Shown: positions 10,201 to 62,149 of the stretch, piece after piece
How positions within the stretch are numbered: the first letter of the stretch is position 1
Layout: the number at the start of each line of letters is the position of its first letter
Assembly (NCBI RefSeq): GCF_902652985.1
Contig: NC_047015.1
Location: 41,106,001-41,170,000 of the forward strand
DNA from: Pecten maximus
Lineage: Eukaryota
Length of the DNA stretch: 64,000 nt
Direction: 5' to 3'
Notes under the pieces: generated by a model
Told to the model about the DNA's origin: nothing
What the model saw: only the letters and a program-made list of their open reading frames with translations
The model's database searches: none
Program-made: the position numbers and the translations under genes

Positions 10201-13200
10201 TCTGTCTTTTAATTAAAATCATTTAGTCTTACCAATTGCTATAGATATTAACACACAACATTTACAACTTTTTTATATTGAATATGGTTTAGTGTCTCAT
10301 AAGCCACCTGCTGGTATGGCTGTGAATTTTAAAATGTTTGTACAAAATGTAATAACTTGTAAAAACTGAAATAAAATATCTTTTTCCGTTTTTTACCAGT
10401 GAAATATATATATATATAACTTAATTCTATAAAGTGAACTTATTTCTGATGTTTTACACTAGTGAAAAATATCACTTTCTGATTTGACCAATTAAAAGAC
10501 TGCTTACAAACAACAATGGGGAAACTTAAAAGCTGACCTGGTATGTTTTGCTATAAAAATGTAATAAACAGAATATCTAACAGTATCTTCATTAATACCA
10601 AATATACTTCACTAGTGTGGCTAATATTTTGATATTTTTCACTGGTGTTGTGCACATATGAAATATGTTTGGTATAACTGAAGACACTGTTAGATGTCCT
10701 CTATATATTCATTGATAGAATCGTTGATCTAATTACTTACTAGTATACTGGTTGTTTGAAGCCAATCCTGCCATCAGCTCTGTCCTGGTATGTGATGTTG
10801 ATGACAATGTTGGCACTGGGATCGCTACACTTGGGTTTCCAGCTTTCATCACAAGCCTGAATCTGGACCTATAGAACACAGGTAAAATACAGGTAAACAA
10901 CCAGTAAACAGGTAAACAGGTAAATACAGGTAAACAAACAGTAAACAGGTAAACAAGTGGTAAACATCGGTACACACTTAGTAAACAACAAGCTTGGAAA
11001 ATACACAGGAAAAGGACAAAACTATTAATTATCAGTTGATAGTGAGGATATGATGGTGTCAATATTTTTGCCGGAAACTTTGACTAGACTTACTAGAATT
11101 GCTATCATGACTCACCGTGATTGGACTGATGTTATTTGGAATGTAAAGGGACTGTTTTATGTACACCTCTCCATTGTCCGATACACCCACATATCGCGCG
11201 AAGGAGGCAGCATTTCCTAATACACTGTATGTAAACTGGGCATTTTTCGTCTGTAAAACAAAACAAACATTTCATGATATCAATCCACTCCTAAATAAGG
11301 ATAGATAGATATATCAAACTGATTAAGGTAGATAACTTCATATATAAAAAAAAACAAAGGAAGATAACGCTCTATATTAAACAAAGGCAGATAACTCCAT
11401 AAAGACAAAGGTAGATTACTCCATATAATAAACAAAGATAGATAACTCCACTGTTTGATTTAATGTATATAACTCAGTAACACACAGATGAAGATTGACT
11501 TTCTCAATTAAACATGAAACATACTACAGTTTTGTCGTAACATACAAAATCTGAAAATATGAGAAATAATGACGAAGGAAACGAAATTTAACAATAAATT
11601 TTTATAAAATGATTACTTACACCAGCGCTGAGAGGTACTTGAGAATCAGCATCAGTTGCAGTTACTGTGATCAGAGGTGTGCCAGCCCTGTCCGTATCTG
11701 TTGCACTCACTTGGTACACATTCGAGGAAAATTCTGGTGCATACGTGTTACGGACAATACTGACGGTGACAGTGGTTGAGGCAGACTTAGGGTTGTTAGA
11801 GGTATCCGAGGCCACTACTGTCAACTGCAATGTACAAGGATAGTCACGATTTGTAAATTACATTGTGGGAAGTTACAGTACATCAGTCCAAACAAACTTA
11901 CAATCGCCTAGCTTGATCATGACTTGATACGCATGGCTGAATATTTAATAAACTATTGATGGGAATTCAATAAATCAAAAAAAATCATTTTATCACCTTG
12001 CATAACAAGATAGTAATGTGTTTACAATTGACTATTGTCTGTTGATGCTTGGAACAAAAAAAACAAGTGGCCATTATAGGCAGGTGGCCTGATGTTTGGA
12101 ACAAAAACAAGTGGCCTTTATAGGCAGGTGGCCTGATGTTTGGAACAAAAACAAGGCCATTATAGGCAGGTGGCCTGATGTTTGGAACAAAAACAAGGCC
12201 ATTATATGCAGGTGGCCTGATGCATGGAACGAAAACAAGTATATATATAGAGATGGTCTTTGGAGGCAGGTTTGACTATCAAATTTAATACTTACAATGT
12301 ACTCATTGTCAGCTAAATCAGTTGTCAGTGGTTGTGCCAGTAGGATGATTCCAGTCGTCCTGGTGATGGTGAAGTATGAGTTGACAGTCTCTATACCGTA
12401 TCGTAGGATACCACTGGTACTGTTTATGTTGTCGTTGTCTGTGGCTGTGACCTGAATAACATCCGTGTCAATATCATGGTATTCCGATATTGATACACTG
12501 TGTGACTGTTGTCCAAATACAGGTGGGTTGGCATTCCTGTTTATATTGATAGTCACGGTGGCAGTTCCAGCTAAAGGTGAAGCACTTTGGTCTGTGGCAA
12601 GGACATTTATCTGGTAATTAAAACAAAACATTATCATTTTCATGCATTGTGTTCATATTCAAATCAACAATACCATATACGACAATCCCTGGACACAGAG
12701 TAAGATATTTGTCAGTCTTTTTATCAAATAGATGATTTCTTTTAAACTTTTCGTTTTGATGAAATTCATGAAATATGAATGAGTGGGCTTATTAGCAGGC
12801 ATGGACATATTGACGAAGAAATCGACCAATCAACAGTGAAGTGACATCATCACAATAAACAGAATCAGTTACAAAATTTTGACAGTATGCATAGTAAATA
12901 TCACACTTAGTAAACCTTACAACAATTACAGAACAAGTTATATCAAAATATGTCTCGTTAGCCAAAGAGTGCAAGGGGTCTCTTACTATGTGAGCAGCCC
13001 CTTGAGAAAACCCATGTGGTCGACCAGATGACTACACGGATCGCGAAATCAGATCCTGAACCACCTACGTGAAAGGTGAGTGTGTTAATACTGTGCCAAC
13101 CGACCAGTCATATGACATACTTATGGCCATACTTACAATGTATCTTTCCACTTGCTCGCGGTAAAGTATGCGGGAAGTAGTTATAACACCAGTTGTGGGA

Positions 13201-16200: not shown

Positions 16201-19200
16201 TACTGTAGCAGACATGGAAGGATTTCCTTGGTCACGTACTCCAACAGTGAACTGAAATAAATCAAACGTTTCATTTTAATACAGTGAAACAACAGATTAA
16301 CACTTTTTCTTTGGAAGAGTTTGAAAAAAGCAAAGGCACTATTACTCTTTTTTTGAATTTGACATAAATTATCTCCCCTACTTTGTACTTCTAACAATAT
16401 CTTCTTGGATTAGTGCATGCTTACAGTGGAATCAGAATTGCATAAGTGATATATAATTTCATAGATCTATATGCATAACAACTAAAAACACTTTTTCTCA
16501 AAATGAGATGCATTTTATCAACGTTGGAAGAATTATGGGAGGAACTAAAACATGGCAATCTTCTTTGTTTTTGCAAACAAAACATTTAGAGACAAAATGG
16601 AGGACTGTTGACCTCAGAGGAGATGTACCTGCCAAACATCCTGAGGTTCTGAAGACAGACTAACTCTGGCTGAGATGGAGCCACTAGTACTGTTGATCTG
16701 GAAGCGTTTACTGGCCTCCTCTGGTCCCACAAAGTAGTAATTCAACTTACTGTTGAATGAGGTCTAGGGAAGACAAAAACAACATTTAGTTTGTATTATA
16801 GGAACATTGTAATAGAGGACAGGGGCATTGTAATAGAGGACAGGGGCATTGTGATAGAGGGTAAAGGCATTGTGATAGAGGGTAAAGGCATTGTAATAGA
16901 GAGTAAAGGCATTGTGATAGAGGGTAAAGGCATTGTAATAGAGGGTAAAGGCATTGTAATAGAGAGTAAAGGCATTGTGATAGAGGGTAAAGGCAATGTA
17001 ATAGAGAGTAAAGGCAATGTAATAGAGGGTAAAGGCATTGTGATAGAGGGTAAAGGCATTGTAATAGAGGGTAAAGGCATTGTAATAGAGGATAATGGCA
17101 TTGTGATAGAGGGTAAAGGCATTGTAATAGAGGGTAAAGGCATTGTGATAGAGGGTAAAGGCATTGTAATAGAGGGTAAAGGCATTGTAATAGAGAGTAA
17201 AGGCATTGTGATAGAGGGTAAAGGCATTGTGATAGAGGGTAAAGGCATTGTAATAGAGGATAAAGGCAATGTAATAGAGGGTAAAGGCATTGTGATAGAG
17301 GGTAAAGGCATTGTAATAGAGGGTAAAGGCATTGTGATAGAGGGTAAAGGCATTGTAATAGAGGGTAAAGGCAATGTAATAGAGGGTAAAGGCAATGTAA
17401 TAGAGAGTAAAGGCATGGTTATAGAGGATATGAGCATTGTAATAGAGCATAGGGGCATTGTAATAGAAGGTTAAGGCATTGTAATAAAGTATAGAGGCAT
17501 TGTAATAGAGGACAGGAGCATTGTAATAGATGGTAAAGGCATTGTAATAGAGGGTAAAGGCATTGTAATAGAGGGTATGGGGATTGTAATAGAGGACAGG
17601 GGTATTTTGATAGAGGGTAAAGGCATTGTAATAGAGGGTAAAGGCATTGTAATAGAGGGTAAAGGCATTGTAATAGAGGACAGGGGTATTTTGATAGAGG
17701 GTAAAGGCATTGTATTAGAACGTGGAGGCATTGTAATAGAGGGTAGAAGCATTGTAATAGAGGACAGGAGCATTGTAATAGAGGATAGAAGCATTGTAAT
17801 AGAGGACAGAGGCGTTGTAATAGAGGGTAGAAGCATGGTATTAGAGGATAATAGAGTTACTGTGAGGGAGTTGTACTCACCACAGGATCTGGGTCTGTTG
17901 CACTAACAGTGATGATGTTGCTGAATATAGCTATGGCCTCAGATACCTCAACACTATACCCTAGAGGGCTAACAAAGGATGGAGGGTCGTTACGGTTGAT
18001 GTTCACAGTCACTGTAGCTGTCGCCATTTTAGGTGTAGCACTTGTATCTCTCACAATAACACGCAACTGAAATTAAAATCAAAAGTATGTATACAATTGC
18101 TAAAACCGTAAACATCATATTAATGAAAAAAATGCCACTTAAACGACTTGTTTTTCACTACTTTGAACAATCATACTAGATAATGCTAAAGCAATACATG
18201 TCCCCAACCAACCCCTGCTAAAAATAGTAACAGTGACCTTGATCCAAAATCCTTGAAACTCAAACTTGTCCGAGATATTATAGTCCTTTATCAGTGAGTG
18301 AAGTTTAATCAAAATCCCTCAAGAAATGAAGCCTCTAGAGCTCTGACAAACTTTGATGTTACATACATACGTAAAGAGGAATGGAGAGCGTCCTCCTGGT
18401 TTCATTGGTAGGGGACTTATAACAACTTTACATTAAAAATTTACAACGAATCAAAATATGGTAGGTTAATTTTATGTAGAAAGGGAACTGATCAGTTTGC
18501 TCTTAGGGAGACGCTGCAGTGTGAGAAGAGGACTTACGATGTAGTCTAATGGTTTAGCTGGGTCAGAAGAAATCAGGTTCGATACGGTGATAACACCGGT
18601 GAAGGGCGAGATGGAGAAGTAGTCGTTGGCAGCCCTACCATCCTCCAGGGAGTAGAACAAATTGTTCTCAGGCATCTGAAAAAAAATGACAACCGTATTA
18701 CATTCTATTTCTCTTCCACGAAATAGGGAAATGTAGAGCAATTTTATGCATTTACATTTTTCTGTCTTGTCCAGTTACTTTGGCAACTTAAAAGTGATAT
18801 TTTGCACAGCAAATCTATGTCATAATCAATATGATGTCATATCCAATTGCCTTTTTTTATGTATTTATCCCACAAGGAGTTAATTCAGTCAATTTGAAGA
18901 GTTTTAATTAATTAGTTTATAGTTTTAAGTACAATTTTGATTTCACCACATTTAAAAACAATCTTACATTTACAGTGTGTCTATCTAGTTAAAAACTTGG
19001 ATATTTTAAACATTTCCCTGTGTTACAAATATTTGACTTTGTACCGTTGTGTCAGAGTCTGTGGCGTTGATATCCAAGATGACTTTTCCATTGGGATCGT
19101 AGTCATTAGCAAACGCCGTGTAGGACAACGGTGCTATAACTGGAGGGAATACATTTCTGTTGATCTTAATTGTAACTGTGGCTCTGCTTACTGCCTCTGG

Positions 19201-52200: not shown

Positions 52201-55200
52201 ATTCTTTTCAGACTCTACTTTTAAATAACTGTGAATTCCTTACAAAGTATTCTGTGTTGATTTCATATTTCAGGTTGCTTTGAACGGTCACATTTCCTGT
52301 GCGGCTATCAACGTGGAAGAAGAAAGGTGCAGAGTTGTCTCCCACTACCTGATATACCATATATCCCTGCAAATATGAAGATCAAGTTTAACATGCTGGT
52401 ATAAAAATGAAATATACATAAGTGTCAATCACCCCAGATTATGCAGGGTAGTGATGGAATATCATTAAAATTGCACGGGGGGGGGGGGTATTTTAAGATA
52501 AACAGTACTTAACATTTACACGAGGGGAGGGGAGGGTGTTATTTTATTTTAGGATAAATAAGGTAAAATAAATAAATTCACGATCCCAGACTTACCTGCA
52601 TATCCAAGTCCCGAGCAGTTACCGTGATGACGGAGGTGGAAACAGCACTGTTCTCATCCAGGCCCTGGAGGTTGTACGGTGTGTTTTGGAATTCTGGAGA
52701 ATTGCTGTTACGATTCACATTGACGTTAACCAATGCGATGCTAGATTTCTCAAATGGATACCTCTGATCACGAACTCTGACATTCATCTGAAGAGAAGAC
52801 AAATTTGTCAGTAAGCTATGCACTCTTAAACAATGTACAGGAACGATGTATTAGACATTATTCTTCCACTTTTAAGATTAGAAACTAATTGAATACATTC
52901 CTCTCTGTCAGCATGCAGGTTTTCATTCTTGTGAGGTTCATAACATACCTGATACAGTGTGGGCCTATCAGAATCACTTTGAAGGAATCTGGTAACCATG
53001 AGGTAGCCGGTATCAGGATTAATGGAAAAGTAGGCCAGTGCCTTAACTGACTGCAGAGTACCCGTTGACAACAGCTCATATCGTAGTGTGTCCTGAAATT
53101 ACAATAGTCATATAACTCCATAATTAGACTGCACAGTCATCTAATATCTAACGATAGTCATATAACTCCATAATTAGACTGCACAGTCATCTAATATCTA
53201 ACGATAGTCATATAACTCCATAATTACACTGCACAGTCATCTAATATCTAACAATATTAACAAATAGCATAACATTTAGAAATATTACATGTTGAAGGTA
53301 GAAAGTTGCAGCACTCGACTCCAGGATACTTACGCCATCTCCATCTGAGGCTGTGATGTTCACGATGTTGGTTCCCACAGGAATGTATTCCCAAACAGTG
53401 ACACTAGCACTGCTGACGACTGGCTCGTTTATATTGTGCGCCACACTTACAGTCAGAGTACCTGTAGCCGTCTTCCCTGGGCTGCCAGAATCATAGGCTG
53501 TCAGAATCACCTGAAAATTTTACTTGTCCATTAACCCTAATGTATGAAAGAATTAGTGTACGCGCATCTATCACTTTCCTCTCTTATTATCCAGAAGACA
53601 ATATCAATATTAATTTTCTCCTTTGAAGGTCTTGCATTAATAATACCTTTTAAAGTTAGTCGTGTTTCAATAAAATCTCGAGGGAAGAAATAATTGAGCA
53701 GCATACTAGAGGAACCAGGATACACTTACTAGATATTGTTCCACAATGTCCATTTTAAGGTCAAGCTGGACAAAAACTTCTCCAGTTGAGTTGTTTACTC
53801 GGAAAAATTTCGGTGAGTTGTACTCTCCTACTATATTGTAAACCATTTGTCCCTGTAAACAAATCAAAACATTTAGTATGACAAGCCATTTCGATCATTT
53901 GAAGAAAAAATTGTTTACTATAGCAAAAAGAAAAGAGAAAATGATAGTTTATTTTCAATTATATACATGCAAGAATCCTAAAAAATTATATTCATGTTTT
54001 CACAAACATTCCTGTAAAAGTTCAGCTACAAATCCTAGTTTACATTTCTGTTCCTGTTTAAAGAGATTATTCAAACCTGCAAGTCTTGGTCATTGGCAGT
54101 GACAGTGAAAATCGACTGTGTCAGCGGGTTTGTCTCTTGGATGTTCCTGGTCGCAGGGAGGTTGGTAAAATTAGGCTGCTCGTCTCTATCTACCGTAATT
54201 ATAACATTGGCTGTATCCTCCTTGTTTCCTACATCACGCACTGTTACAGTAAACTGAAAATAGAATCAGCATCGATTGAGATACGAACCATTTAAAAAAA
54301 AATAATAATAAAAAAAAGAAATCTGATGTAAAGTTAAATAGTTCAATGATTAAGTTTTGTCCACATATTTGAAATTTGTGAGATACATTCCATTCATTTT
54401 CAATACATACTCTTTTATTTATACACTTACTGTGAACTGATTGTAAATAGAGGAAGTCAAAATTTGTCGGAGGGAGATGAGGCCATTTTCTGGGTTGACA
54501 TAGAAATAGTCCTTATCTTGTTGATCAGCTGCTGCATCCATGTAGAAAGCAAGCTTATCCTAGTAACAAAAAGTTACACAAATGTTACCATAGTAAAACA
54601 AAAAGTTACACAAATGTTAGTTACTATAGTATAAACCAATGTTACCATAGTAACAAACAGAATAAACAAATGTTACCATTGTAAGAAAAAAATATTACAC
54701 AGGTGTTACCAGAGTAACAAAAACTGACACAAATGTTACGGCTAAGGATTGCATAAATGCTTCCATAGTAACAAATGGTTACACAAAAAAGTTTACACCC
54801 CAAATGTTACCATGGAAACAAAAAGTTACACATATTGCCATGGTAACAAAAAGTAACACAAATTTAAATGTTAGAACAGTTATAAGAAAATACTACACAT
54901 GTCAAATTTTATTCTAGTAACAAAAATTCAATAAGGCAGACAACCTTTTTAACACAAGACTCTTAGAAGATTGCTGAAATAAATTCTAAATCACCTTATT
55001 CCTGACAATATTGTACTTTGAATTCAAAGATTCACTGTTTTAGCTAATCTCTTTGAAATTAAAAAAAAAAACTAGTTTATATCTGGGAAATTTCTAAACT
55101 AAAATTAGATCTAAAATGTAAGTCATGGTTACAAAGCAGAGAAAACAGAAAACTGTCTTACATTGTCAGCATCAGTAGCATTGAGCTGGACAACAGAAGT

Positions 55201-58200
55201 GCCCAGAGGGAAAGTCTCTGCAATATTCCTAGTGTACAAGTCCTGTGTGAATACTGGAGCTGCAGGATTCCTGTTGACTGGTATTCTTACAACTGTAACC
55301 ACACGGTTGTTAGGGTAGAAAGTGTCAAAGGCAGCAACCCTCAGCTGTAAGGTAAACATTTGTTAGATACAATTTTCATATTGATATCACAGGATACCAG
55401 ACCTTTTATTCCCTTACAAAATTAACATTAGTTTGATCATTAACATATATCTGATTTTTATAAATTTATTTGTAAACAAATACATATTTATATACACAAG
55501 TTTTACAAATTTCATATTTTGTCTCAGATTTCTATTTGACTTTGTTGACTTTGTCTTTAAGATACCAAAAGCAACTGACTTTGCAGTTTTAAGTTCTGAA
55601 CATCATGGCAAATGTGTTATATTATTTCTGAAATTAGATATTAACTTGATTACCTCATAAACGCCAGTTTGCAAGCTGTCCGAGGTGACCAGTCTGCTTA
55701 CAGTTACAGCACCCGAAACCAAACCAACATCAAAGAAGGAAGGTGCCGGATAAGTCCCCTCAACAACATAGTTAATTGTTTCCTGAAACAGAGTAAATGA
55801 CATTATAAGTGTATCCACTGATGTTAGACTTTATCTCAAGGGAGTTAAGTGTATCCACTGATGTTAGACTTGATCTCACAGGAGTTAAGTGTATCCACTG
55901 ATGTTAGACTTTATCTCAAGGGAGTTAAGTGTATACACTGATGTTAGACTTTATCTCAAGGGAGTTAAGTGTATCCACTGATGTTAGACTTTATCTCAAG
56001 GGAGTTAAGTGTAGCCACTGATGTTAGACTTTATCTCACAGGAGTTAAGTGTATACACTGATGTTAGACTTTATCTCAAGGGAGTTAAGTGTAGCCACTG
56101 ATGTTAGACTTTATCTCACAGGAGTTAAGTGTATCCACTGATGTTAGACTTGATCTCACAGGAGTTAAGTGTATACACTGATGTTAGACTTTATCCCATG
56201 GGAGTTAAGTGTATACACTGATGTTTGACTTTATCTCACGGGAGTTAAGTGTATACACTGATGTTAGACTTTATCTCAAGGGAGTTAAGTGTATCCACTG
56301 ATGTTAGACTTTATCTCACGGGAGTTAAGTGTATCCACTGATGTTAGACTTTATCTCACGGGAGTTAAGTGTATCCACTGATGTTAGACTTTATCTCACA
56401 GGAGTTAAGTGTATACACTGATGTTAGACTTTATCTCACAGGAGTTAAGTGTATCCACTGATGTTAGACTTTATCTCACGGGAGATAAGTGTATACACTG
56501 ATGTTAGACTTTATCTCACGGGAGATAAGTGTATACACTGATGTTAGACTTTATCTCACGGGAGTTAAGTGTATCCACTGATGTTAGACTTTATCTCACG
56601 GGAGTTAAGTGTATACACTGATGTTTGACTTTATCTCACAGGAGTTAAGTGTATACACTGATGTTAGACTTTATCTCACAGGAGTTAAGTGTATACACTG
56701 ATGTTAGACTTTATCTCACAGGAGTTAAGTGTATACACTGATGTTAGACTTTATCTCACGGGAGTTAAGTGTATACACTTATGTTAGACTTTATCTCACG
56801 GGAGTTAAGTGTATCCACTGATGTTAGACTTTATCACACGGGAGTTAAGTGTATCCACTGATGTTAGACTTTATCTCACGGGAGTTAAGTGTATACACTG
56901 ATGTTAGACTTTATCTCACGGGAGTTAAGTGTATACACTGATGTTAGACTTTATCTCACGGGAGTTAAGTGTATACACTGATGTTAGACTTTATCTCACA
57001 GGAGTTAAGTGTATACACTGATGTTAGACTTGATCTCACAGGAGTTAAGTGTATACACTGATGTTAGACTTTATCTCACGGGAGTTAAGTGTATACACTG
57101 ATGTTAGACTTTATCTCACGGGAGTTAAGTGTATACACTGATGTTTGACTTTATCTCACAGGAGTTAAGTGTATACACTGATGTTAGACTTTATCTCAAG
57201 GGAGTTAAGTGTATACACTGATGTTAGACTTGATCTCACGGGAGTTAAGTGTATCCACTGATGTTTGACTTTATCTCACGGGAGTTAAGTGTATACACTG
57301 ATGTTAGACTTTATCCCATGGGAGTTAAGTGTATACACTGATGTTAGACTTTATCTCACGGGAGTTAAGTGTATCCACTGATGTTTGACTTTATCTCACG
57401 GGAGTTAAGTGTATACACTGATGTTAGACTTTATCTCACAGGAGTTAAGTGTATACACTGATGTTAGACTTTATCTCACGGGAGTTAAGTGTATACACTG
57501 ATGTTAGACTTTATCTCACGGGAGTTAAGTGTATACACTTATGTTAGACTTTATCTCACGGGAGTTAAGTGTATCCACTGATGTTAGACTTTATCACACG
57601 GGAGTTAAGTGTATCCACTGATGTTAGACTTTATCTCACGGGAGTTAAGTGTATACACTGATGTTAGACTTTATCTCACGGGAGTTAAGTGTATCCACTG
57701 ATGTTAGACTTGATCTCACGGGAGTTAAGTGTATCCACTGATGTTTGACTTTATCTCACAGGAGTTAAGTGTATACACTGATGTTAGACTTTATCTCAAG
57801 GGAGTTAAGTGTATACACTGATGTTTGACTTTATCTCACTGGAGTTAAGTGTATACACTGATGTTAGACTTTATCTCACGGGAGTTAAGTGTATCCACTG
57901 ATGTTAGACTTTATCTCAAGGGAGTAAATGACTTTGTCACAAAATATATATTTTCATTAAGTTTTGATGTTACTATTTATCTCAAAAAAGAAAGTTTTGA
58001 TGTTACTATTTATCTCAAAAAAAGAAACAAACTTGTTTATAAATACCTCTAAATCAGCATCAGTAGCCTCCACAGTGTCTATAAGTTCTCCAACTGGCAC
58101 CACTTGTGCTATCTGGCGGCCGTAGTTGTTACGAGTGTATAAAGGTGGGAAATTGTCGCGGTTGATATTGATGGTCGCAGTCACACTTGTGCATTGCTGT

Positions 58201-61200
58201 GGTACTCGCTGGTCACATGCCCTAATGGTGATCTGTAATATTCAGACAGTAAAATGTAAGCAATGATATATACAGTACAGGTGTGAAATACACAAGGATG
58301 GAAATATGCAGGCGTGAAATGTAAAAGTACGAAAAGATACAAATGTGAACATTATTACATTATATTTGATGGATTTCAAACATTTTTTCTCCAGAATGAT
58401 GATAGTACTATACCCTATCTAGCGCCTGAGTGCCTTCTGAGAGGAGCTTCTTCAGGGTGATCAGTCCAGTGACAGGGTTGATGTAGTAGTACTCCAGAGC
58501 AAGGCTGTTACCAGTTATATCAAACCGTATCTCATCCTGTAAGTACAAATCACAAAATTGTAACACTGAAGAATACTACAAATAATGTAGCTGTAATATA
58601 TATCACTTGGCTTGAGAGGAATTCTGCATTCATTGCACAACATTATAATCATGGCCTATTCTTTGAATTATTAATAAAAAAAAAATGAAATAACAATAAT
58701 AATTCCACTGTTTCTTTCTAAGTGATGTCATATTAAATCAGAAACAAGAACAAATGAATTGATAAAACAGTTGAAAATTTGGAATTTTGTAATACTTTCG
58801 GAAGTATAAAGGGAAATAACTCTAGCATAACTTATAACTGCACAATTAGCATATAGTACCTTATATCTAATCCAGAAATTACACGTCACACTTACCCCAT
58901 CAGCATCAGTTGCGTTAATGTCTACGATTAGCGAGCCAAGTGGTATGTGGTCGTAGACTGTCCGGTCATACGGAGTGTTTATAAATACTGGGGCATTCCC
59001 GTTGCGGCTCACAAATACAGGTACAGTGGCTGTAGCTTGGTTTTCAGGGTAGACACTGTCATACGCGATCACGTGCAGCTGTAAAAATAGTTTATGGTAG
59101 CGTCATATTAAATTCAAATGGCATTTAAATCAAATTCATCATGAGTGATCACAAGTTACAGCCAAATTAATGTGGACTTACTGTTATAGACACATTCAGA
59201 CATATCTGAACAATGGTCATGTGACCTTCATTTATTTGGGCATGTACTATGATTTATCCTTAGGTAAGTTTCATTCCCCTGGGGAAAAATTATGATACAT
59301 TTTCCCTTCTGACTAGATGACAGATAAGCATACTTTTGAGACTACACTCAATGGACTTACCTGATAATTCTGTTGTACATCTCGTAACAAAAGGTTCTGG
59401 TTCTGGACAGACAGATAAGCGGTTGTTTTGTTGATAGAAAAGAAGGTAGCTGCAATACTGTCATGGATCACATCATACATGATTTGTCCCTGTAGACAAA
59501 AAAAACAGTTATATCAGCTGTGAAGTGTGAAAACAGCAGCTATAGGCAGAGCAATAACATAATCAAAAACTAAAATGTCACAATTAAAAAAAAAAGAAGA
59601 ATTTTAACTAAAAATAATGAAATAAAATTTTACCCTCCTGTCAGAATCAGTGGCCAAAATATTCGTGTAGAATACAGTGTTATCCACAGTGTTTTCGTTG
59701 GTGATGGCACTATAGGGCGTGTTTTGGAATTCTGGCGCGAAATTGTCCCGTAATACGATGACATGGACACGAGCCTGGCTCGTCCTGGCAGGATTACCTT
59801 GGTCAGATGCTTGTACATTGAACTGTCAATAGTAGAAAAGTTAACATTACCATAAAACACAAATAAATGCTTGTTACAAATAAATGCTTGTTACAAATAA
59901 ATGTGTGTTATGAGCCTTTTTTAAAATTCAGTGGCAGAAAAATCCTTCTGGGGTATACAAATGTGTTTTTTTAAAATTACATAATAAATTTTATTTACAT
60001 AACAGTGTTGCTTCTTCAACTTCTTAAGAAGAAAGCGTTTCAACTTTGATAGCATTCATAGCTAACAGGTTATCAATCTCAACCCAACGGGTTTCTTAAA
60101 CTAAGCAATTAGGAAATGAATCGAACTTGCTGTTAATTGTTAAATATTAATGGAGTGTCAGGGTTGGGGGCCCCTAGGTGGTGTCCTCACCGATTATTAT
60201 CAAAGACTAAAGCAGTGTTCATACACAAAATGTAAAGCAATAAATGTGTACCAAGTATATTAGAACTGATAGCTTTAGATAAAGTGTTAGACGAGGATAG
60301 AAGTCTTATATGAGTAAGTTGAATACTTACAGAGTAGTTGGCAACATTGGTCGAGGTAAGGAGACCTTGTAGAGTAATGACGCCAGAGTCAGCATTTATA
60401 AAGAAGAAGGTTGTGTACGGGGTACCATCTACAATGCTGAACTTTATCTGGTCCTAAAAAAGAAAACAACATTTTTAGTTTTTTAAAAACACAAAAGATT
60501 GAAAAAAAGCAATTTGGATTGAGCTGTATTTAGCTAGTCAGGGAATGGTTTCTGTAACTTCTAGACTAACATCTGGACTAGACAAAATTTCTTGTAACAT
60601 ATCCCCACAAAAAACAGGCTAGGGTAATTTATACCACCAGAAACAGATTAGATTATCATACTTCCCTAGAGACAAAATGGGGTTATTAACAGAACAGGGT
60701 TATCATACTTCCCTGGGGACAGAACAGGGTTATCATACTTCCCTGGGGACAGAACTGGGTTGTCATACTTCACTGGTGACAGAACTGGGTTATCATACTC
60801 CCCTGGGGACAGAACAGGGTTATCATACTCCCCTGGGGACAGAACAGGGTTATCATACTCCCCTGGGGACAGAACAGGGTTATCATACTCCCCTGGGGAC
60901 AGAACTGGGTTATCATACATCCTGGGGACAGAACAGAGTTATAACTCAATGTACTTACATTATCTGCATCATTTGCAGTGACTTGCAAAACAGTTGTTCC
61001 AAGGTCACGTTTTTCCTCAATGGGGGTTTGATAAAAGGTTGGGTTGAACACAGGTGGAAACTCGTTCCTCGTTACGAAGACATTGACAGTGGTAAAAGCT
61101 GTCTGGGTGGTCACATCAAAAGACACAGCCTTCACAAGCAACTGAAGTGGAACAAATTATTATTATATAACTACATACCGAATCACAGTTCTATATCTGT

Positions 61201-62124
61201 GCCCATTAAAGAGTAATTGAGCACAAATGAAATTATGATGGAATGACAGAATGATGGAGAAGGTTAACAAATTAGTTAAAATGGTGAGAACATATACAAT
61301 ATAATAGCAAATGGTTCCACATATGTGGTATAAGCACACTATTACATAATTGCTGTGCTTTTCTGACCTATGTAATTAATCATGAGGCCTGACTTACAAT
61401 GTAATGGGTGAGTTGGGAGCTGTCAGTCTTCAGATCTTGTTGTACCAGGATGTCACCGCTGTTCTTATTCAAGGAGAAATAAGTAGGCCCCGGATCTCTC
61501 CCGGTCAGGGTGTACTCGATGCTTACCTACAAATTGTTACATGTCAAAGTTGTTAAAGTGACAAGCTAAACATTTAAAAAGAACAATCCACTTCTGTTAC
61601 TTTTGTTTTCACAATCAAATTAAAATTACAGAAAGTTACATATTTTACTTAATATAAACAATATAAATACTTGACAAATATGTTGATAAAAAAAAATACA
61701 AACATTGATAACCCACACTGACATTCAATGAAAACACATTTAAAGGATTATCAGAAACCTTGTAATTAGTGTCAGTCTATCAGAAACCTTGTAATTAGTG
61801 TCAGTCTATCAGAAACCTTGTTAGTGTCAGTCTATCAGAAACCTTATCAGTATCAGCCTATCAGAAACCTTAAAATGTGATCTGATAACCTTTCAGATTA
61901 TTAAAAAAGTTTAAAATCATATTTCTAAAATCAAAACTTAAACTTACCCCTGGTGAAGCAACTACACGGGTCACAAAGTCGTTGATTGGTGAATTTTCGC
62001 TTTTAGTCACATTGTACACGGGAAGTGCGAAGGACAGAACGCCCGAGCTTCGCAGGACATTGACAGTTAATGTGGCAGTCGCCTGTTTAATGGGCACACC
62101 TTGATCCATAGCGACAATAGTCAG
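4162..62124 (-). CDS. Giant non-classical cadherin (PCDH15/Cad99C/CDH23-like architecture), 5'-partial, 85 exons, >=4512 aa, >=40 EC repeats + membrane-adjacent domain + TM + PDZ-binding tail
   Basis: 85 exons, all bounded by AG/GT with compatible phases, concatenate into one open frame of 13,539 nt ending in TAA at 4162-4164. Recurrent cadherin motifs are present (PxF, xE, AxDxD, FxIxxxTGxI, AxDxGxP), with one canonical FDYE...DVNDNSP linker, a 24-aa hydrophobic helix and C-terminal TTML. No start codon or signal peptide is in the window. The family assignment comes from architecture, not from a search. Confidence 0.92.
4757..4899 (-). CDS. cadherin exon 84 (cytoplasmic)
   Basis: 143 nt, 0-2; SLNMYVPP...AVNPIFV. 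Confidence 0.85.
5074..5173 (-). CDS. cadherin exon 83 (cytoplasmic)
   Basis: 100 nt, 2-0; YTKYINQYRIY...PPSFLREYETQ. Confidence 0.85.
5315..6085. repeat. 32-bp minisatellite, ~22 copies
   Basis: Unit ACTCAACCACGAGGTCAATAACTGTTTACCCC, degenerate at both ends. Confidence 0.95.
6263..6496 (-). CDS. cadherin exon 82 (transmembrane helix at 6274-6345)
   Basis: 234 nt, 2-2; VFTADK...WAALVALAAIIILLCIVGIIVLVFTHS. Confidence 0.9.
6893..7003. repeat. purine-rich GGAG/GGAA low-complexity tract
   Basis: ggagggaaggagggatgg... repeats. Confidence 0.9.
7027..7098 (-). CDS. cadherin exon 81 (membrane-adjacent domain)
   Basis: 72 nt, 2-2; TDVIFVLGEP...NTRMP. Confidence 0.8.
7462..7560 (-). CDS. cadherin exon 80 (membrane-adjacent domain)
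   Basis: 99 nt, 2-2; AIQDEFQKVCIIERIERRR...IDDA. Confidence 0.85.
7794..7885 (-). CDS. cadherin exon 79 (membrane-adjacent domain)
   Basis: 92 nt, phase 0-2; INIIYHYNRFVLV...KAVIR. Confidence 0.85.
8351..8581 (-). CDS. cadherin exon 78 (last EC)
   Basis: 231 nt, 0-0; ATDEDSELLG...TQSTAY. Confidence 0.9.
8824..9011 (-). CDS. cadherin exon 77 (only canonical DxNDN linker)
   Basis: 188 nt, phase 1-0; (I)QNTHPIASVIIDVLDVNDNSPIF...VMRVH. Confidence 0.9.
9847..10106 (-). CDS. cadherin exon 76 (FDYE motif, RKKR furin site)
   Basis: 260 nt, phase 2-1; (Y)LQLRENID...FDYE...GRKKRQIF. Confidence 0.88.
10310..10705. mobile_element. MITE-like element with terminal hairpin
   Basis: ATCTAACAGTATCTTCATTAATACCAAA (~10574-10601) pairs imperfectly with TTTGGTATAACTGAAGACACTGTTAGAT (~10668-10695); CACTAGTGAAAAATATCA / TGATATTTTTCACTGGTG inverted pair. 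Confidence 0.55.
10741..10868 (-). CDS. cadherin exon 75
   Basis: 128 nt, phase 0-2; VQIQACDESWKPKC...GFKQPVY. Confidence 0.87.
11116..11250 (-). CDS. cadherin exon 74
   Basis: 135 nt, 0-0; TKNAQFTYS...NISPIT. Confidence 0.87.
11621..11824 (-). CDS. cadherin exon 73
   Basis: 204 nt, 0-0; LTVVASDTS...VPLSAG. Confidence 0.9.
12045..12240. repeat. ~45-bp tandem repeat, ~4 copies
   Basis: TGATGTTTGGAACAAAAACAAG(T)GGCCATTATAGGCAGGTGGCC. Confidence 0.9.
12296..12610 (-). CDS. cadherin exon 72 (fused long+short exon)
   Basis: 315 nt, 0-0; INVLATDQS...ADNEYI. Confidence 0.9.
12958..13110 (-). mobile_element. degenerate SINE-like remnant
   Basis: The minus strand begins GGTCGGTTGGCACAGTATTAACACACTCACCTTTCAC, a decayed tRNA-like head, in a GC-richer island within an AT-rich intron. 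Confidence 0.3.
13137..13259 (-). CDS. cadherin exon 71
   Basis: 123 nt, 0-0; DPIVYSIVP...QVERYI. Confidence 0.9.
13423..13805 (+). mobile_element. short HINE-like element
   Basis: 13-bp inverted repeat ATACCCCCGCAAT (13454-13466) / ATTGCGGGGGTAT (13788-13800); 3' hairpin TATACCCCC..GGGGGTATA; (GACA)n(GACG)n microsatellite; A-rich ends. Confidence 0.75.
13881..14063 (-). CDS. cadherin exon 70
   Basis: 183 nt, 0-0; MFVVAKDSG...ATDADN. Confidence 0.9.
14336..14482 (-). CDS. cadherin exon 69
   Basis: 147 nt, 0-0; GDNGKIVYF...TTQSYT. Confidence 0.9.
14636..14818 (-). CDS. cadherin exon 68
   Basis: 183 nt, 0-0; IRVYGYRLN...ATDQDQ. Confidence 0.9.
15246..15407. repeat. ~160-bp near-perfect palindrome (hairpin MITE), adjacent to a second inverted-repeat segment 14999-15246
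   Basis: TAAGCATTGAACTGCTTTCATTTGGAAGTTATGGGCTGATGAATG ... CATTCATCAGCCCATAACTTCCAAATGAAAGCAGTTCAATGCTTA. Confidence 0.9.
15477..15605 (-). CDS. cadherin exon 67
   Basis: 129 nt, 0-0; STIVYEIRG...LTNMYT. Confidence 0.9.
16069..16251 (-). CDS. cadherin exon 66
   Basis: 183 nt, 0-0; FTVGVRDQG...TDPLAG. Confidence 0.9.
16629..16763 (-). CDS. cadherin exon 65
   Basis: 135 nt, 0-0; TSFNSKLNY...PQDVWQ. Confidence 0.85.
16795..17856. repeat. 21-bp minisatellite, ~50 copies, filling intron 64
   Basis: Unit GGCATTGTAATAGAGGGTAAA; it produces the spurious 220-aa ORFs. Confidence 0.97.
17881..18066 (-). CDS. cadherin exon 64
   Basis: 186 nt, 0-0; LRVIVRDTS...TDPDPV. Confidence 0.9.
18173..18425 (+). 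mobile_element. decayed HINE-like element
   Basis: GTCCCCAACCAA near the 5' end versus TTGGTAGGGGAC near the 3' end; internal GTGACCTTGA; (CATA)n tract. Confidence 0.45.
18538..18675 (-). CDS. cadherin exon 63
   Basis: 138 nt, 0-0; MPENNLFYS...KPLDYI. Confidence 0.9.
19045..19230 (-). CDS. cadherin exon 62
   Basis: 186 nt, 0-0; LLIEAYDTK...TDSDTT. Confidence 0.87.
19539..19667 (-). CDS. cadherin exon 61
   Basis: 129 nt, 0-0; GAIRYEVKG...LFPNYF. Confidence 0.9.
19780..19965 (-). CDS. cadherin exon 60
   Basis: 186 nt, 0-0; FNVFVSDSR...SDSDLQ. Confidence 0.9.
20413..20538 (-). CDS. cadherin exon 59
   Basis: 126 nt, 0-0; DRLIYTSDM...TPSRFD. Confidence 0.87.
20766..20948 (-). CDS. cadherin exon 58
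   Basis: 183 nt, 0-0; LRVEVYDSY...ATDADG. Confidence 0.9.
21289..21980 (+). mobile_element. HINE-like element
   Basis: 5' CAAGAGGCCCATGGGCC plus GTCATCTGA; 3' GACG/GACA tract then hairpin GTCATC..CCTTCGG..TCAGATGAC; internal repeat at ~370-bp spacing and 3x21-bp repeat at ~21599-21665. Confidence 0.7.
22014..22142 (-). CDS. cadherin exon 57
   Basis: 129 nt, 0-0, AAG acceptor; GNMTYKLVG...ETMEYT. Confidence 0.86.
22313..22501 (-). CDS. cadherin exon 56
   Basis: 189 nt, 0-0, AAG acceptor; VQIEATDNG...TDQDRR. Confidence 0.86.
22535..22750. repeat. 23/29-bp tandem repeat, ~8 copies
   Basis: (ATACC)CTAATCTGTACCAGGTTATCAACC. Confidence 0.92.
23268..23393 (-). CDS. cadherin exon 55
   Basis: 126 nt, 0-0; STLTCSVIG...VTEIYT. 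Confidence 0.87.
23650..24055. repeat. 47-bp tandem repeat of exon 54 3' end + 5' splice site, 8 donor copies
   Basis: Unit CCAGCAATACTTACACTATCCGGGTCGGATACATTGAGGGCTAGGGA; donors at 24018, 23971, 23924, 23877, 23830, 23783, 23736, 23689. Confidence 0.96.
24019..24201 (-). CDS. cadherin exon 54 (donor tandemly duplicated)
   Basis: 183 nt, 0-0; LEVVAYDTG...VSDPDS. Confidence 0.88.
24383..24511 (-). CDS. cadherin exon 53
   Basis: 129 nt, 0-0; GDIVYETVG...NLLKYT. Confidence 0.9.
24865..25898. repeat. 42-bp (some 31-bp) tandem repeat of exon 52 3' end + 5' splice site, ~25 copies
   Basis: Unit TTGACCTTGACACCTGTACTTACCAGCGTTGGTGTCCTTGTA; the minus strand reads ...ACGCTG|GTAAGTAC. Confidence 0.96.
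25881..26066 (-). CDS. cadherin exon 52 (3' end ambiguous: tandem donor ladder)
   Basis: 186 nt to the first donor, 0-0; CQVAVTDNG...TRTPTL. Confidence 0.82.
26195..26317 (-). CDS. cadherin exon 51
   Basis: 123 nt, 0-0; DTLEYSLTG...NDPQYN. Confidence 0.9.
26673..26855 (-). CDS. cadherin exon 50
   Basis: 183 nt, 0-0; LTVRAYDNN...ANDNDN. Confidence 0.9.
27246..27557 (-). CDS. cadherin exon 49 (fused long+short exon)
   Basis: 312 nt, 0-0; MVVRATDSG...RTAVYT. Confidence 0.9.
27968..28440. repeat. 39-bp minisatellite, ~12 copies
   Basis: AATTGATCATAATTAACTCTTTGACAGTGCTGTAGTAAC. Confidence 0.96.
28451..28585 (-). CDS. cadherin exon 48
   Basis: 135 nt, 0-0; DEVVYDLIG...SVSSFS. Confidence 0.9.
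29362..29544 (-). CDS. cadherin exon 47
   Basis: 183 nt, 0-0; LTIEAYDSA...ASDADG. Confidence 0.9.
29557..30452. repeat. ~58-61-bp minisatellite, ~15 copies
   Basis: AGTCTTATAATCCCTCACTGTTATCCTACACGATGAGAGGATATAAATCAGTAGACAAATT. Confidence 0.96.
30718..30843 (-). CDS. cadherin exon 46
   Basis: 126 nt, 0-0; GNMTYVVTG...ARTTYI. Confidence 0.9.
31155..31340 (-). CDS. cadherin exon 45
   Basis: 186 nt, 0-0; FTVRASDQS...TDADLR. Confidence 0.9.
31739..31855 (-). CDS. cadherin exon 44
   Basis: 117 nt, 0-0; DTVQYTVTS...AQKSFT. Confidence 0.88.
32485..32670 (-). CDS. cadherin exon 43
   Basis: 186 nt, 0-0; LRVQVYDSE...ASDADN. Confidence 0.9.
33122..33250 (-). CDS. cadherin exon 42
   Basis: 129 nt, 0-0; ETGGKLEYK...NALNYV. 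Confidence 0.87.
34050..34232 (-). CDS. cadherin exon 41
   Basis: 183 nt, 0-0; MTIEASDQR...TDVDLS. Confidence 0.9.
34717..34830 (-). CDS. cadherin exon 40
   Basis: 114 nt, 0-0; DVMAFRILG...DPVTYV. Confidence 0.88.
35047..35232 (-). CDS. cadherin exon 39
   Basis: 186 nt, 0-0; MTVAVYDSY...AGDIDN. Confidence 0.9.
35782..35901 (-). CDS. cadherin exon 38 (acceptor duplicated 49 nt upstream)
   Basis: 120 nt, 0-0; GTLQYMVSG...NVVNFV. Confidence 0.87.
35888..35986. repeat. perfect 49-bp tandem duplication containing the exon 38 3' splice site
   Basis: TATTGGAGGGTTCCCTGTCAAACACATCTCAATGTCTAAATACATATCT x2. Confidence 0.95.
36476..36670 (-). CDS. cadherin exon 37
   Basis: 195 nt, 0-0; FNVRARDQG...SDADRR. 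Confidence 0.9.
37062..37196 (-). CDS. cadherin exon 36
   Basis: 135 nt, 0-0; DDVRYNIVN...PVAQYS. Confidence 0.9.
37504..37689 (-). CDS. cadherin exon 35
   Basis: 186 nt, 0-0; LRVEAYDMA...AIDPDG. Confidence 0.9.
37976..38110 (-). CDS. cadherin exon 34
   Basis: 135 nt, 0-0; LPSRIMYEI...NTLVYT. Confidence 0.87.
38501..38686 (-). CDS. cadherin exon 33
   Basis: 186 nt, 0-0; MVIEAADQR...VDDDLL. Confidence 0.9.
38893..39337. repeat. 32-bp minisatellite, ~14 copies
   Basis: GAATACAGCGATCCTYTCYAAGTTAACAATTT. Confidence 0.96.
39470..39595 (-). CDS. cadherin exon 32
   Basis: 126 nt, 0-0; DVVTYRIVS...LFNNTI. Confidence 0.9.
39601..39905. repeat. ~62-bp tandem repeat, ~5 copies
   Basis: AAACACAAACCCC..TAATAAAATACCAGATAATACAGTATTGAGTAAAATATAT. 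Confidence 0.88.
40315..40503 (-). CDS. cadherin exon 31
   Basis: 189 nt, 0-0; VELSVYDSL...SDSDPL. Confidence 0.87.
40795..40923 (-). CDS. cadherin exon 30
   Basis: 129 nt, 0-0; GVLVYEITG...NLVRYT. Confidence 0.9.
41189..41374 (-). CDS. cadherin exon 29
   Basis: 186 nt, 0-0; FTVYARDQR...RDTDLT. Confidence 0.9.
41495..46829. repeat. 5.3-kb 29/31-bp satellite filling intron 28 (~175 copies)
   Basis: Unit ACTAGAACTGTACTGGGTATTATCTATAG with or without AG/GG; begins ~5 nt from the exon 28 donor. Confidence 0.98.
46835..46957 (-). CDS. cadherin exon 28
   Basis: 123 nt, 0-0; DIPVYRMTG...PTVQYN. Confidence 0.9.
47237..47755. repeat. 26-bp minisatellite, ~20 copies
   Basis: ACACCATCAGTAGTACCTACAATGTA. 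Confidence 0.96.
47788..47970 (-). CDS. cadherin exon 27
   Basis: 183 nt, 0-0; FKVMTFDTG...AVDLNG. Confidence 0.9.
48294..48410 (-). CDS. cadherin exon 26
   Basis: 117 nt, 0-0; GQVVYEVVV...LDITYR. Confidence 0.88.
48808..48993 (-). CDS. cadherin exon 25
   Basis: 186 nt, 0-0; LGVQACDTG...IDNSPL. Confidence 0.9.
49272..49415 (-). CDS. cadherin exon 24
   Basis: 144 nt, 0-0; DDISYSIVD...DITRFV. Confidence 0.9.
49613..49798 (-). CDS. cadherin exon 23
   Basis: 186 nt, 0-0; YLVVAYDSL...TDNDNH. Confidence 0.9.
50335..50466 (-). CDS. cadherin exon 22
   Basis: 132 nt, 0-0; GSVKYRAIG...QYSQFT. Confidence 0.88.
50799..50990 (-). CDS. cadherin exon 21
   Basis: 192 nt, 0-0; MTVQATDDR...TDADVK. Confidence 0.9.
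51435..51560 (-). CDS. cadherin exon 20
   Basis: 126 nt, 0-0; DTMTYTALP...RRLSFQ. Confidence 0.88.
51622..51778. repeat. ~47-bp tandem repeat, 3 copies
   Basis: TAATCTAAACTTTATATATGTTACTACACGACACAGAATATAAACAC. Confidence 0.9.
51871..52053 (-). CDS. cadherin exon 19
   Basis: 183 nt, 0-0; LVVEAYDSQ...ASDNDG. Confidence 0.9.
52244..52366 (-). CDS. cadherin exon 18
   Basis: 123 nt, 0-0; GYMVYQVVG...INTEYF. Confidence 0.9.
52596..52787 (-). CDS. cadherin exon 17
   Basis: 192 nt, 0-0; MNVRVRDQR...RDLDMQ. Confidence 0.9.
52949..53092 (-). CDS. cadherin exon 16
   Basis: 144 nt, 0-0; DTLRYELLS...RPTLYQ. Confidence 0.9.
53102..53255. repeat. 50-bp tandem repeat, 3 copies
   Basis: ATAGTCATATAACTCCATAATTAGACTGCACAGTCATCTAATATCTAACG. 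Confidence 0.92.
53334..53510 (-). CDS. cadherin exon 15
   Basis: 177 nt, 0-0; VILTAYDSG...ASDGDG. Confidence 0.9.
53730..53852 (-). CDS. cadherin exon 14
   Basis: 123 nt, 0-0; GQMVYNIVG...IVEQYL. Confidence 0.9.
54077..54253 (-). CDS. cadherin exon 13
   Basis: 177 nt, 0-0; FTVTVRDVG...NDQDLQ. Confidence 0.88.
54431..54559 (-). CDS. cadherin exon 12
   Basis: 129 nt, 0-0; DKLAFYMDA...IYNQFT. Confidence 0.9.
54565..54880. repeat. degenerate ~30-bp tandem repeat
   Basis: AAAAAGTTACACAAATGTTACCATAGTAAC-like units. Confidence 0.75.
55162..55344 (-). CDS. cadherin exon 11
   Basis: 183 nt, 0-0; LRVAAFDTF...ATDADN. Confidence 0.9.
55654..55782 (-). CDS. cadherin exon 10
   Basis: 129 nt, 0-0; ETINYVVEG...QTGVYE. 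Confidence 0.9.
55806..57925. repeat. 40-bp minisatellite, ~53 copies, filling intron 9
   Basis: TAAGTGTATMCACTGATGTTAGACTTTATCTCACGGGAGT. Confidence 0.98.
58047..58232 (-). CDS. cadherin exon 9
   Basis: 186 nt, 0-0; ITIRACDQR...TDADLE. Confidence 0.9.
58414..58536 (-). CDS. cadherin exon 8
   Basis: 123 nt, 0-0; DEIRFDITG...TQALDR. Confidence 0.87.
58896..59078 (-). CDS. cadherin exon 7
   Basis: 183 nt, 0-0; LHVIAYDSV...ATDADG. Confidence 0.9.
59361..59489 (-). CDS. cadherin exon 6
   Basis: 129 nt, 0-0; GQIMYDVIH...VQQNYQ. Confidence 0.9.
59634..59822 (-). CDS. cadherin exon 5
   Basis: 189 nt, 0-0; FNVQASDQG...TDSDRR. Confidence 0.9.
60331..60453 (-). CDS. cadherin exon 4
   Basis: 123 nt, 0-0; DQIKFSIVD...NVANYS. 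Confidence 0.9.
60688..60945. repeat. 30-bp minisatellite, ~8 copies
   Basis: GGGGACAGAACAGGGTTATCATACTCCCCT. Confidence 0.95.
60959..61141 (-). CDS. cadherin exon 3, long type X
   Basis: 183 nt, 0-0; LLVKAVSFD...ANDADN. Confidence 0.9.
61398..61526 (-). CDS. cadherin exon 2, short
   Basis: 129 nt, 0-0; VSIEYTLTG...QLTHYI. Confidence 0.85.
61749..61870. repeat. ~29-bp tandem repeat, ~4 copies
   Basis: TATCAGAAACCTTGTAATTAGTGTCAGTC. Confidence 0.85.
61948..62124 (-). CDS. cadherin exon 1 (in window), long type Y
   Basis: AG/GT, 177 nt, phase 0-0; LTIVAMDQG...VVASPG. Confidence 0.88.
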
Positions 62125-62149
62125 CTAAAACAACAGAATAATATGGCTT

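Follow-up and report, generated by a model that had tools for sequence, protein, structure and literature searches.

What protein is encoded by a long row of cadherin exons in Pecten maximus, how did its repeated domains arise, and does the uniform phase of its introns serve to vary the length of the product? These questions are raised by a stretch of 64,000 nucleotides (the window; G000:C1:41106001-41170000), in which a sequence-only reading had described 74 consecutive phase-0 exons and proposed both an old duplication of a two-domain cassette and length tuning by exon skipping. With a probability of roughly 0.6, we take the gene to encode an 85-domain cadherin with the ends of PCDH15/Cad99C, in which 74 domains derived from EC9 act as a semi-flexible spacer of fixed length within a long apical tether.

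Exon layout and transcript support

The gene was located by motif scans and splice-site scoring, and HMMs of the long and of the short exons traced the alternation past the window. All 74 exons in the interval (Table 1) are on the minus strand, are flanked by AG and GT, have lengths that are multiples of 3 and are open in phase 0. Long exons of 177-204 nt alternate with short exons of 114-147 nt, apart from two fused exons; up to this point the description made from the letters holds entirely. The HMM anchors were trained on phase-0 exons and so fix the frame and the rough place, not the splice position. When splice sites around these anchors were chosen blind to phase, phase 0 was obtained at 68/75 acceptors and 71/75 donors in the window, and at 71/72 acceptors and 66/72 donors in the upstream DNA.

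RNA contigs were placed on positions 17900-35650 only. They come from runs X1, X4 and X7, which represent three studies; their RNA status is presumed, but the contigs are spliced. Among the 15 joints listed, 12 are consecutive exon joints of the model and the other three are non-canonical and intronic, with 52 further joints unlisted. Contig offsets agree with the model at 7/7 points over exons 39-64 in X1 and at 7/7 points over exons 45-64 in X7, and 26 exons of the window match one RNA contig to the base. Run X3 scarcely covers the exons and counts neither way. The exons outside 17900-35650, including the phase change at exon 75, are predicted and backed by orthologue alignment.

The first exon that does not end in phase 0 is exon 75 (10868-10741), and within the window non-zero phases occur only from there, as had been noted. 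Two details of the earlier description change. What it counted as exon 1 is number 94 in the gene, the phase-0 run beginning far upstream, and the junction between short and long exons lies three residues into strand F and not before it (AlphaFold model of an oyster orthologue).

Some other features of the window can be recorded here. In-frame alternative sites with good scores are present for one acceptor (40950 vs 40923) and one donor (25839 vs 25881; the contigs use 25881). Long intronic tandem arrays of 31-, 40- and 27-base units occupy 41511-46829, 55806-57925 and 62151-63943; reaching 5.3 kb, they are the source of the largest introns of the repeat array. In three intronic segments (21320-21830, 28750-28960 and 18205-18340), contig depth is very high and loose ends are numerous; they are probably dispersed repeats.

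The whole gene

The window contains only the 3' half of a predicted cadherin gene. In the full model, 178 coding exons spread across 129 kb make up one open frame of 9,412 amino acids, from a signal peptide to TTML and the stop codon; 148 consecutive introns are in phase 0, and mixed phases are confined to the two ends. It comprises 74 long-plus-short repeat units, of which the window carries 37-74. We predict 85 EC domains, nine preceding the linker of the first unit and two following that of the last, and then a membrane-adjacent domain (MAD), a transmembrane (TM) helix and a cytoplasmic tail. The upstream and C-terminal exons are predictions supported by orthologue alignment; three upstream boundaries (two fused exons and one donor) were chosen by hand. 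The tail motif EYETQ is common to this gene and a tick Cad99C-like protein, and the terminal TTML, as predicted from sequence, fits the class I PDZ-binding consensus S/T-X-L/V (as in PMC2171266). Further upstream (G000:C1:41276200-41276720), at a distance of about 37 kb from the start codon, minus-strand exon candidates resemble an inward-rectifier potassium channel.

Table 1. Features of the giant cadherin gene, in the order of transcription (window positions unless a contig is named)
Feature	Position	Strand	Basis or remark
Units 1-36, EC1-EC9 and signal peptide	G000:C1:41170286-41239206	-	predicted
Intron leading upstream out of the window	62125..64000	-	93 further predicted coding exons beyond
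74 phase-0 exons, repeat units 37-74 of 74	11116..62124	-	model; RNA contigs for 17900-35650
Long exon: most of strand F, G, R-N/D linker, A, B, DxD			
Short exon: C, D, E and start of F			
X/Y alternating block, 32 units (16 cycles)	18538..62124	-	period, typing, tree
Fused long+short exon, unit 61, 312 nt	27246..27557	-	one piece in RNA contigs X1 and X7
Fused long+short exon, unit 73, 315 nt	12296..12610	-	predicted
Exon 75: F-G strands matching the end of Cad99C EC9, and EC9-10 linker	10741..10868	-	
EC84 (EC10 equivalent), furin-type RKKR motif in F-G loop	9847..10106	-	
Two exons: end of EC84, canonical DVNDN linker, EC85 (EC11 equivalent)	8351..9011	-	
Three exons: membrane-adjacent (MAD12-like) domain	7027..7885	-	model of oyster orthologue P0276
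End of MAD and transmembrane helix	6263..6496	-	
Three tail exons: EYETQ motif, C-terminal TTML, stop codon	4162..5173	-	

Relation to PCDH15 and Cad99C

The tick Cad99C-like protein P0371, which has 11 EC domains, aligns with EC1-9 (33%, E 1e-111, 376 bits; the best score outside the orthologue/Cad99C set is 270 bits). The alignment resumes at exon 75 and continues through EC10, EC11, the MAD, the TM helix and the tail (26%, E 2e-28). The 74 units are therefore inserted at one phase-0 intron inside EC9. On the repeat HMM, EC9 of the tick protein scores 87.8 bits and its nine other detected domains at most 56.6. In mollusc N-termini, namely that of this gene and those of three orthologues, the lead of EC9 over EC7 is at most 9 bits or absent (66.3 vs 57.3, 67.6 vs 67.0 and 60.2 vs 61.9); in orthologue P0299, EC9 exceeds EC7 by 29 bits.

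The insertion point and the collinear ends, like the exon layout and, as described below, the period of two and the conserved orthologue arrays, are shown by the data, and the identity of the protein rests on ranked pairwise scores, collinear alignment and Foldseek. The exon for EC2-3 has PCDH15 as its best PDB match, at the matching position, and the short unionid orthologue P0158 aligns position by position with the EC1-7, EC4-7, EC5-7 and EC6-7 fragments of PCDH15. The EC8-9 linker is DMNDA here and DMNDY in PCDH15 (PMC5120219). In a Foldseek search with a model of the C-terminal part (oyster P0276, pLDDT 75, 45% identical), the top match is PCDH15 EC9-MAD12 (E 3e-35); of the matches listed, PCDH15 EC10-MAD12 reaches the highest target TM (0.78). 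CDH23 EC25-MAD28 comes at rank 2-3 in the same search, and the total PDB score of CELSR1 exceeds that of PCDH15.

The two Pfam models specific for PCDH15 (the EC1 "ECD" and the twelfth domain) give no match in the 26 exons and four orthologues scanned; the record of the tick Cad99C-like protein does not list them either. A search of G000 for PF18432 gave no match, and neither did its control. The missing Pfam matches are what a spiralian paralogue would show that had split from PCDH15/Cad99C as a separate CDHX family, the normal short copy being kept elsewhere. Such an origin could also be read from the two Patella proteins with this C-terminus, from the tandem N-terminal copies of unionids and from genome searches that score few candidates only. 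We consider it improbable, since searches of G000 with the EC2-3 and TM exons (of limited sensitivity) gave no second PCDH15-type copy, their two weak matches being other cadherins, and since an annelid record itself named Cadherin-99C is the front of a giant protein with R-N units.

Other candidates were set aside. A match on C7 (G000:C7:5390000-5393000) is a large-exon cadherin, CELSR/flamingo-like by reading and unrelated to this gene; two on C1 are other cadherins with canonical linkers. A genome search with a fused exon returned a single match, an unrelated canonical cadherin.

Two-unit periodicity and duplication history

Two EC types, X and Y, had been seen to alternate over 16 cycles (62124-18538), and the scores between units bear this out: the mean is ~110 at even lags and ~67 at odd lags, a contrast as high in 0/2000 permutations. 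The upstream block behaves at even and odd lags like the X/Y block, and the period of two spans units 1-68. Leave-one-out typing agrees with parity for 31/32 units in the window and 67/68 gene-wide, and the pattern fades in units 69-74. The motifs proposed for type X are frequent ([YF]D and RN each 15/16, a short exon starting with D 14/16, DxD[GN] 11/16). Those for type Y hold in about half of the units (DQ 8/15; RD, DxDL and G-x-[YF]-P-A each 7/15), with a G start of the short exon in 11/15.

The tree of the units (74 rows and 108 columns, none dropped) requires 5-7 changes of parity, compared with ~25 in shuffled data and a value as low in 0/500. Clustering by alternating position was thus found as expected; two clean clades for X and Y were not. 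There are instead four weakly supported groups, namely X, Y, upstream-even and upstream-odd, with Y beside upstream-odd (8/71 branches are starred and the bootstrap has not settled). Within units 1-40, lag 18 is prominent, with a score of 133 against 92-125 at the other even lags and pairs such as 9/27, 19/37 and 21/39, which indicates a block duplication of 18 units. A young duplication at the DNA level was not seen in the gene, as there is no off-diagonal match in the coding sequence or between parts of the gene more than 6 kb apart. The period-2 profile, the parity in the tree and this lack of remaining DNA self-similarity support the proposal that a two-domain cassette of four phase-0 exons was duplicated in tandem long ago.

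In the AlphaFold model of an oyster fragment (pLDDT 82; pTM 0.31, which makes the inter-domain angles unusable), every unit folds as EC-type beta strands. The start of a short exon lies immediately ahead of strand C and that of a long exon three residues inside strand F, and the F-G hairpins are predicted to be longer in X-type than in Y-type domains.

The following history is likely to account for this arrangement. The ancestral EC9 would have contained two phase-0 introns, one following DxD and one where strand F begins. The long-plus-short exon pair would have been copied in frame at the second of these introns and would then have diverged into two types; the two would have been amplified as a four-exon cassette, and the 18-unit block duplication would have come later. 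On such a history, the uniform phase 0 would be the footprint of the cassette and not a splicing device. A second possible source of the cassette is the N-terminal long-plus-short phase-0 exon pair of EC3-EC4 (L006:8037-9138), which has the register of the array units.

Another minus-strand cadherin, at G000:C1:29380001-29480000, has canonical linkers and young multi-exon tandem duplications, with blocks 81-94% identical at offsets of ~12-14 kb, introns included. It is a better site than the present gene in which to seek ongoing length change.

Conservation of the array

A profile of 36 long exons found ten proteins of the R-N type among its best 150 matches, in Haliotis, Patella, Tubulanus, Lingula, Potamilus and Plakobranchus. 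A C-terminal search added Sinanodonta, Solemya, oysters, Batillaria, Gigantopelta, Babylonia, Aplysia and a cuttlefish cluster; its range was proteins up to 5,928 amino acids, and longer orthologues entered only as cluster members. Lamellibrachia, Mytilus and Bulinus came in through a search with the N-terminal part.

In 15 orthologues, units were counted back from unit 74 and the best-matching unit of each was compared by position. The best match is at the same position for 37/38 units in Saccostrea echinata, 36/38 in S. cucullata, 35/38 in Solemya, 25/37 in Gigantopelta and 14/38 in a contig of the cuttlefish cluster. It is rarely so in Lingula (2/32), Tubulanus (3/24), Batillaria (6/38) and Sinanodonta (5/20); the remaining values are 18/24, 15/26, 17/24, 12/16, 15/28 and 12/18. 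In Batillaria and Sinanodonta the starred matches run in order, so that a slip of register (split matches) is likely. Alternation of the two types is complete in Haliotis (29/29 and 36/36 neighbor pairs), and it is maintained in the brachiopod Lingula (27/32) and the nemertean Tubulanus (17/21) despite their low matching by position.

In the comparison of EC counts across species that had been suggested, oyster, Solemya, Gigantopelta and cuttlefish-cluster orthologues keep the number and order of the units in the window. Since positions match across mollusc classes, the part of the array in the window predates the split of bivalves, gastropods and cephalopods, which is of Cambrian age. Judged from these alignments, the array is ancient and largely, though not universally, frozen. 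The X/Y island at units 19-22 is missing from Haliotis P0002, and unionid models count only ~18-20 units; their loci carry tandem N-terminal copies, and the models there may be chimeric. In unionid mussels (P0296, P0297, P0298, P0043 and P0158), neighboring genes in tandem share the N-terminus, and one unionid gene model has its own TM helix and tail after about ten EC domains.

The wider statement has, in our estimate, about even odds. According to it, the giant cadherin of spiralians (molluscs, annelids, brachiopods and nemerteans) would be PCDH15/Cad99C stretched eightfold by 74 permuted copies of EC9, the neighbor of the calcium-free elastic hinge in vertebrate tip links, with count and order kept since the Cambrian (a stasis stated for molluscs). 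It would form a two-domain-periodic, single-calcium tether of ~0.4 micrometre on microvilli or sensory cilia.

Exon skipping and length

It had also been suggested that regulated skipping of long-plus-short exon units tunes the length of the protein. All units are frame-symmetric, most of them are absent from the unionid gene models, and contigs lose rare variants, so that minor skipping could pass unseen, with 52 joints unlisted. The idea is nevertheless unsupported, and we hold it to be very unlikely. In the contigs, which stem from three studies, each of the 12 exon joints listed connects consecutive exons, and the offsets of the X1 contig agree without loss over 26 exons. The three oyster RefSeq isoforms X1-X3 differ by just three residues, and transcript-sized Logan contigs of the cuttlefish cluster carry units 29-74 in full. 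Furthermore, the skip of a single unit would combine X and Y strands in one domain, and the alternation is nearly unbroken; the count and order of the units are retained across mollusc classes.

Calcium sites in the linkers

The canonical calcium motifs of cadherins are listed in PMC5120219. In the 74 units, xD-top is retained in 71/74, XEX in 50/74, and the two aspartates of DxD in 69/74 and 65/74. The linker has R in 67/74, followed by N or D in 68/74 and by P in 71/74. None of the 74 units contains DxND[NH] or D[RYF]E. PCDH15 EC9 lacks DYE and DXNDN, and its EC9-10 linker is described as calcium-free and bent (PMC5120219); copies of EC9 would inherit this pattern without canonical linker motifs. 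The EC5-6 linker of PCDH15, with a similar set of motifs, is reported to bind one Ca2+ at site 3 and to be flexible (PMC7547225). With DxD, xD-top and R-N retained, and DxNDN and DRE missing, each linker of the array would by analogy bind one Ca2+ at site 3 and flex in the same way.

Tether or shed filament

In the preferred reading, the PCDH15-like tip would bind a partner and the MAD-TM-PDZ end would anchor the protein on microvilli or cilia. Between tip and foot, the array would be a semi-flexible spacer with a period of two domains, and the whole a constitutively spliced apical tether. The PCDH15-CDH23 pair has 38 EC domains. Scaled from its tip links, 150-180 nm long (PMC7547225), a rod of 85 EC domains would reach ~350-400 nm. 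In the fly, Cad99C is on microvilli and determines their length (PMC2171266). Two members of the oyster cluster, K1QB61 and K1QMS2, were detected as proteins and are higher in juveniles or after metamorphosis (PMC4527670).

The main rival to an anchored tether is shedding. With the same origin of the gene, the ectodomain would be released by cleavage in EC84 and would form a filament in cuticle, glycocalyx or adhesive mucus. The F-G loop of EC84 has KR in 17/17 orthologue records and R-x-K-R in 12/17 (some records share a species or genus), and the tick Cad99C-like protein lacks the site. From this pattern, the dibasic site is likely to be cut by a furin-type protease. A filament would also be compatible with the 69 N-glycosylation sequons of the array and with the 77-EC octopus cadherin that is high in suckers (PMC6339937). 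On the other hand, with a cut in the F-G loop, strand G and the DVNDN linker stay on the stump and could hold the parts together; the tail and its PDZ end are conserved; and a Cad87A-like gene of G000 also has a late-EC basic run. We therefore regard release as a real but clearly less probable outcome than a tether that remains anchored. The gene with the comparable basic run (G000:C1:53885000-53912000) is a plus-strand cadherin, Cad87A-like by reading, with RRRR in a late EC domain.

Significance and comparison with known cadherins

A giant mollusc cadherin is already known from publications, which limits the surprise. What the analysis adds is an identity and an origin for a protein that is labelled Fat 4-like and usually fragmented in databases. 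It suggests that spiralians have a tip-link and microvillus cadherin, PCDH15, lengthened about eight times at a domain adjoining a known elastic hinge, and it makes the function of very long cadherin links and of serial one-calcium linkers testable. The gene is also a clean example of growth by phase-0 exon cassettes out of register with the domains, followed by long stasis. In the literature covered, there is no report of a PCDH15/EC9 origin, of a phase-0 two-domain cassette or of stasis; the primary accounts of CDHX and of the octopus genome lie outside that scope and may contain it.

Like Fat and Dachsous, the protein has many tandem EC domains. Unlike Fat, it has no EGF/LamG region or Fat tail in the model, and none was present in the C-terminal exons or orthologues scanned. 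The Fat-type matches retain DxNDN and LDRE linkers and cover just part of the C-terminal query, and the name "protocadherin Fat 4-like", which databases give to most orthologues, looks like an artefact of best BLAST matches. With CDH23 it shares a long EC rod and a MAD at its end, but CDH23 records cover less than 45% of the N- and C-terminal queries and none is among the tail matches listed.

The closest known case by description is CDHX of octopus, a sucker-enriched cadherin with 77 EC domains (Wang and Ragsdale 2017, as cited in PMC6339937 and PMC6110919). Both are giant mollusc cadherins with a similar domain count, 85 here and 77 there. A cephalopod orthologue exists, in a cluster with Sepia pharaonis records; no octopus record is among the orthologue matches inspected by name. 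The present gene is probably the orthologue of octopus CDHX. A cadherin of over 80 domains was reportedly noted in Octopus and Capitella by Albertin and coworkers in 2015.

With PCDH15 of vertebrates and Cad99C of arthropods, the protein shares collinear EC1-9, EC10-11, the MAD and a single TM helix, as well as the tail motif, a class I PDZ end, DMND at EC8-9 and a non-canonical EC9-10 linker. The tick Cad99C-like protein differs in EC10, where it lacks the dibasic site present here. Unlike both PCDH15 and Cad99C, the present protein carries 74 additional units inside EC9, with 85 EC domains instead of 11, joined by R-N/D linkers.
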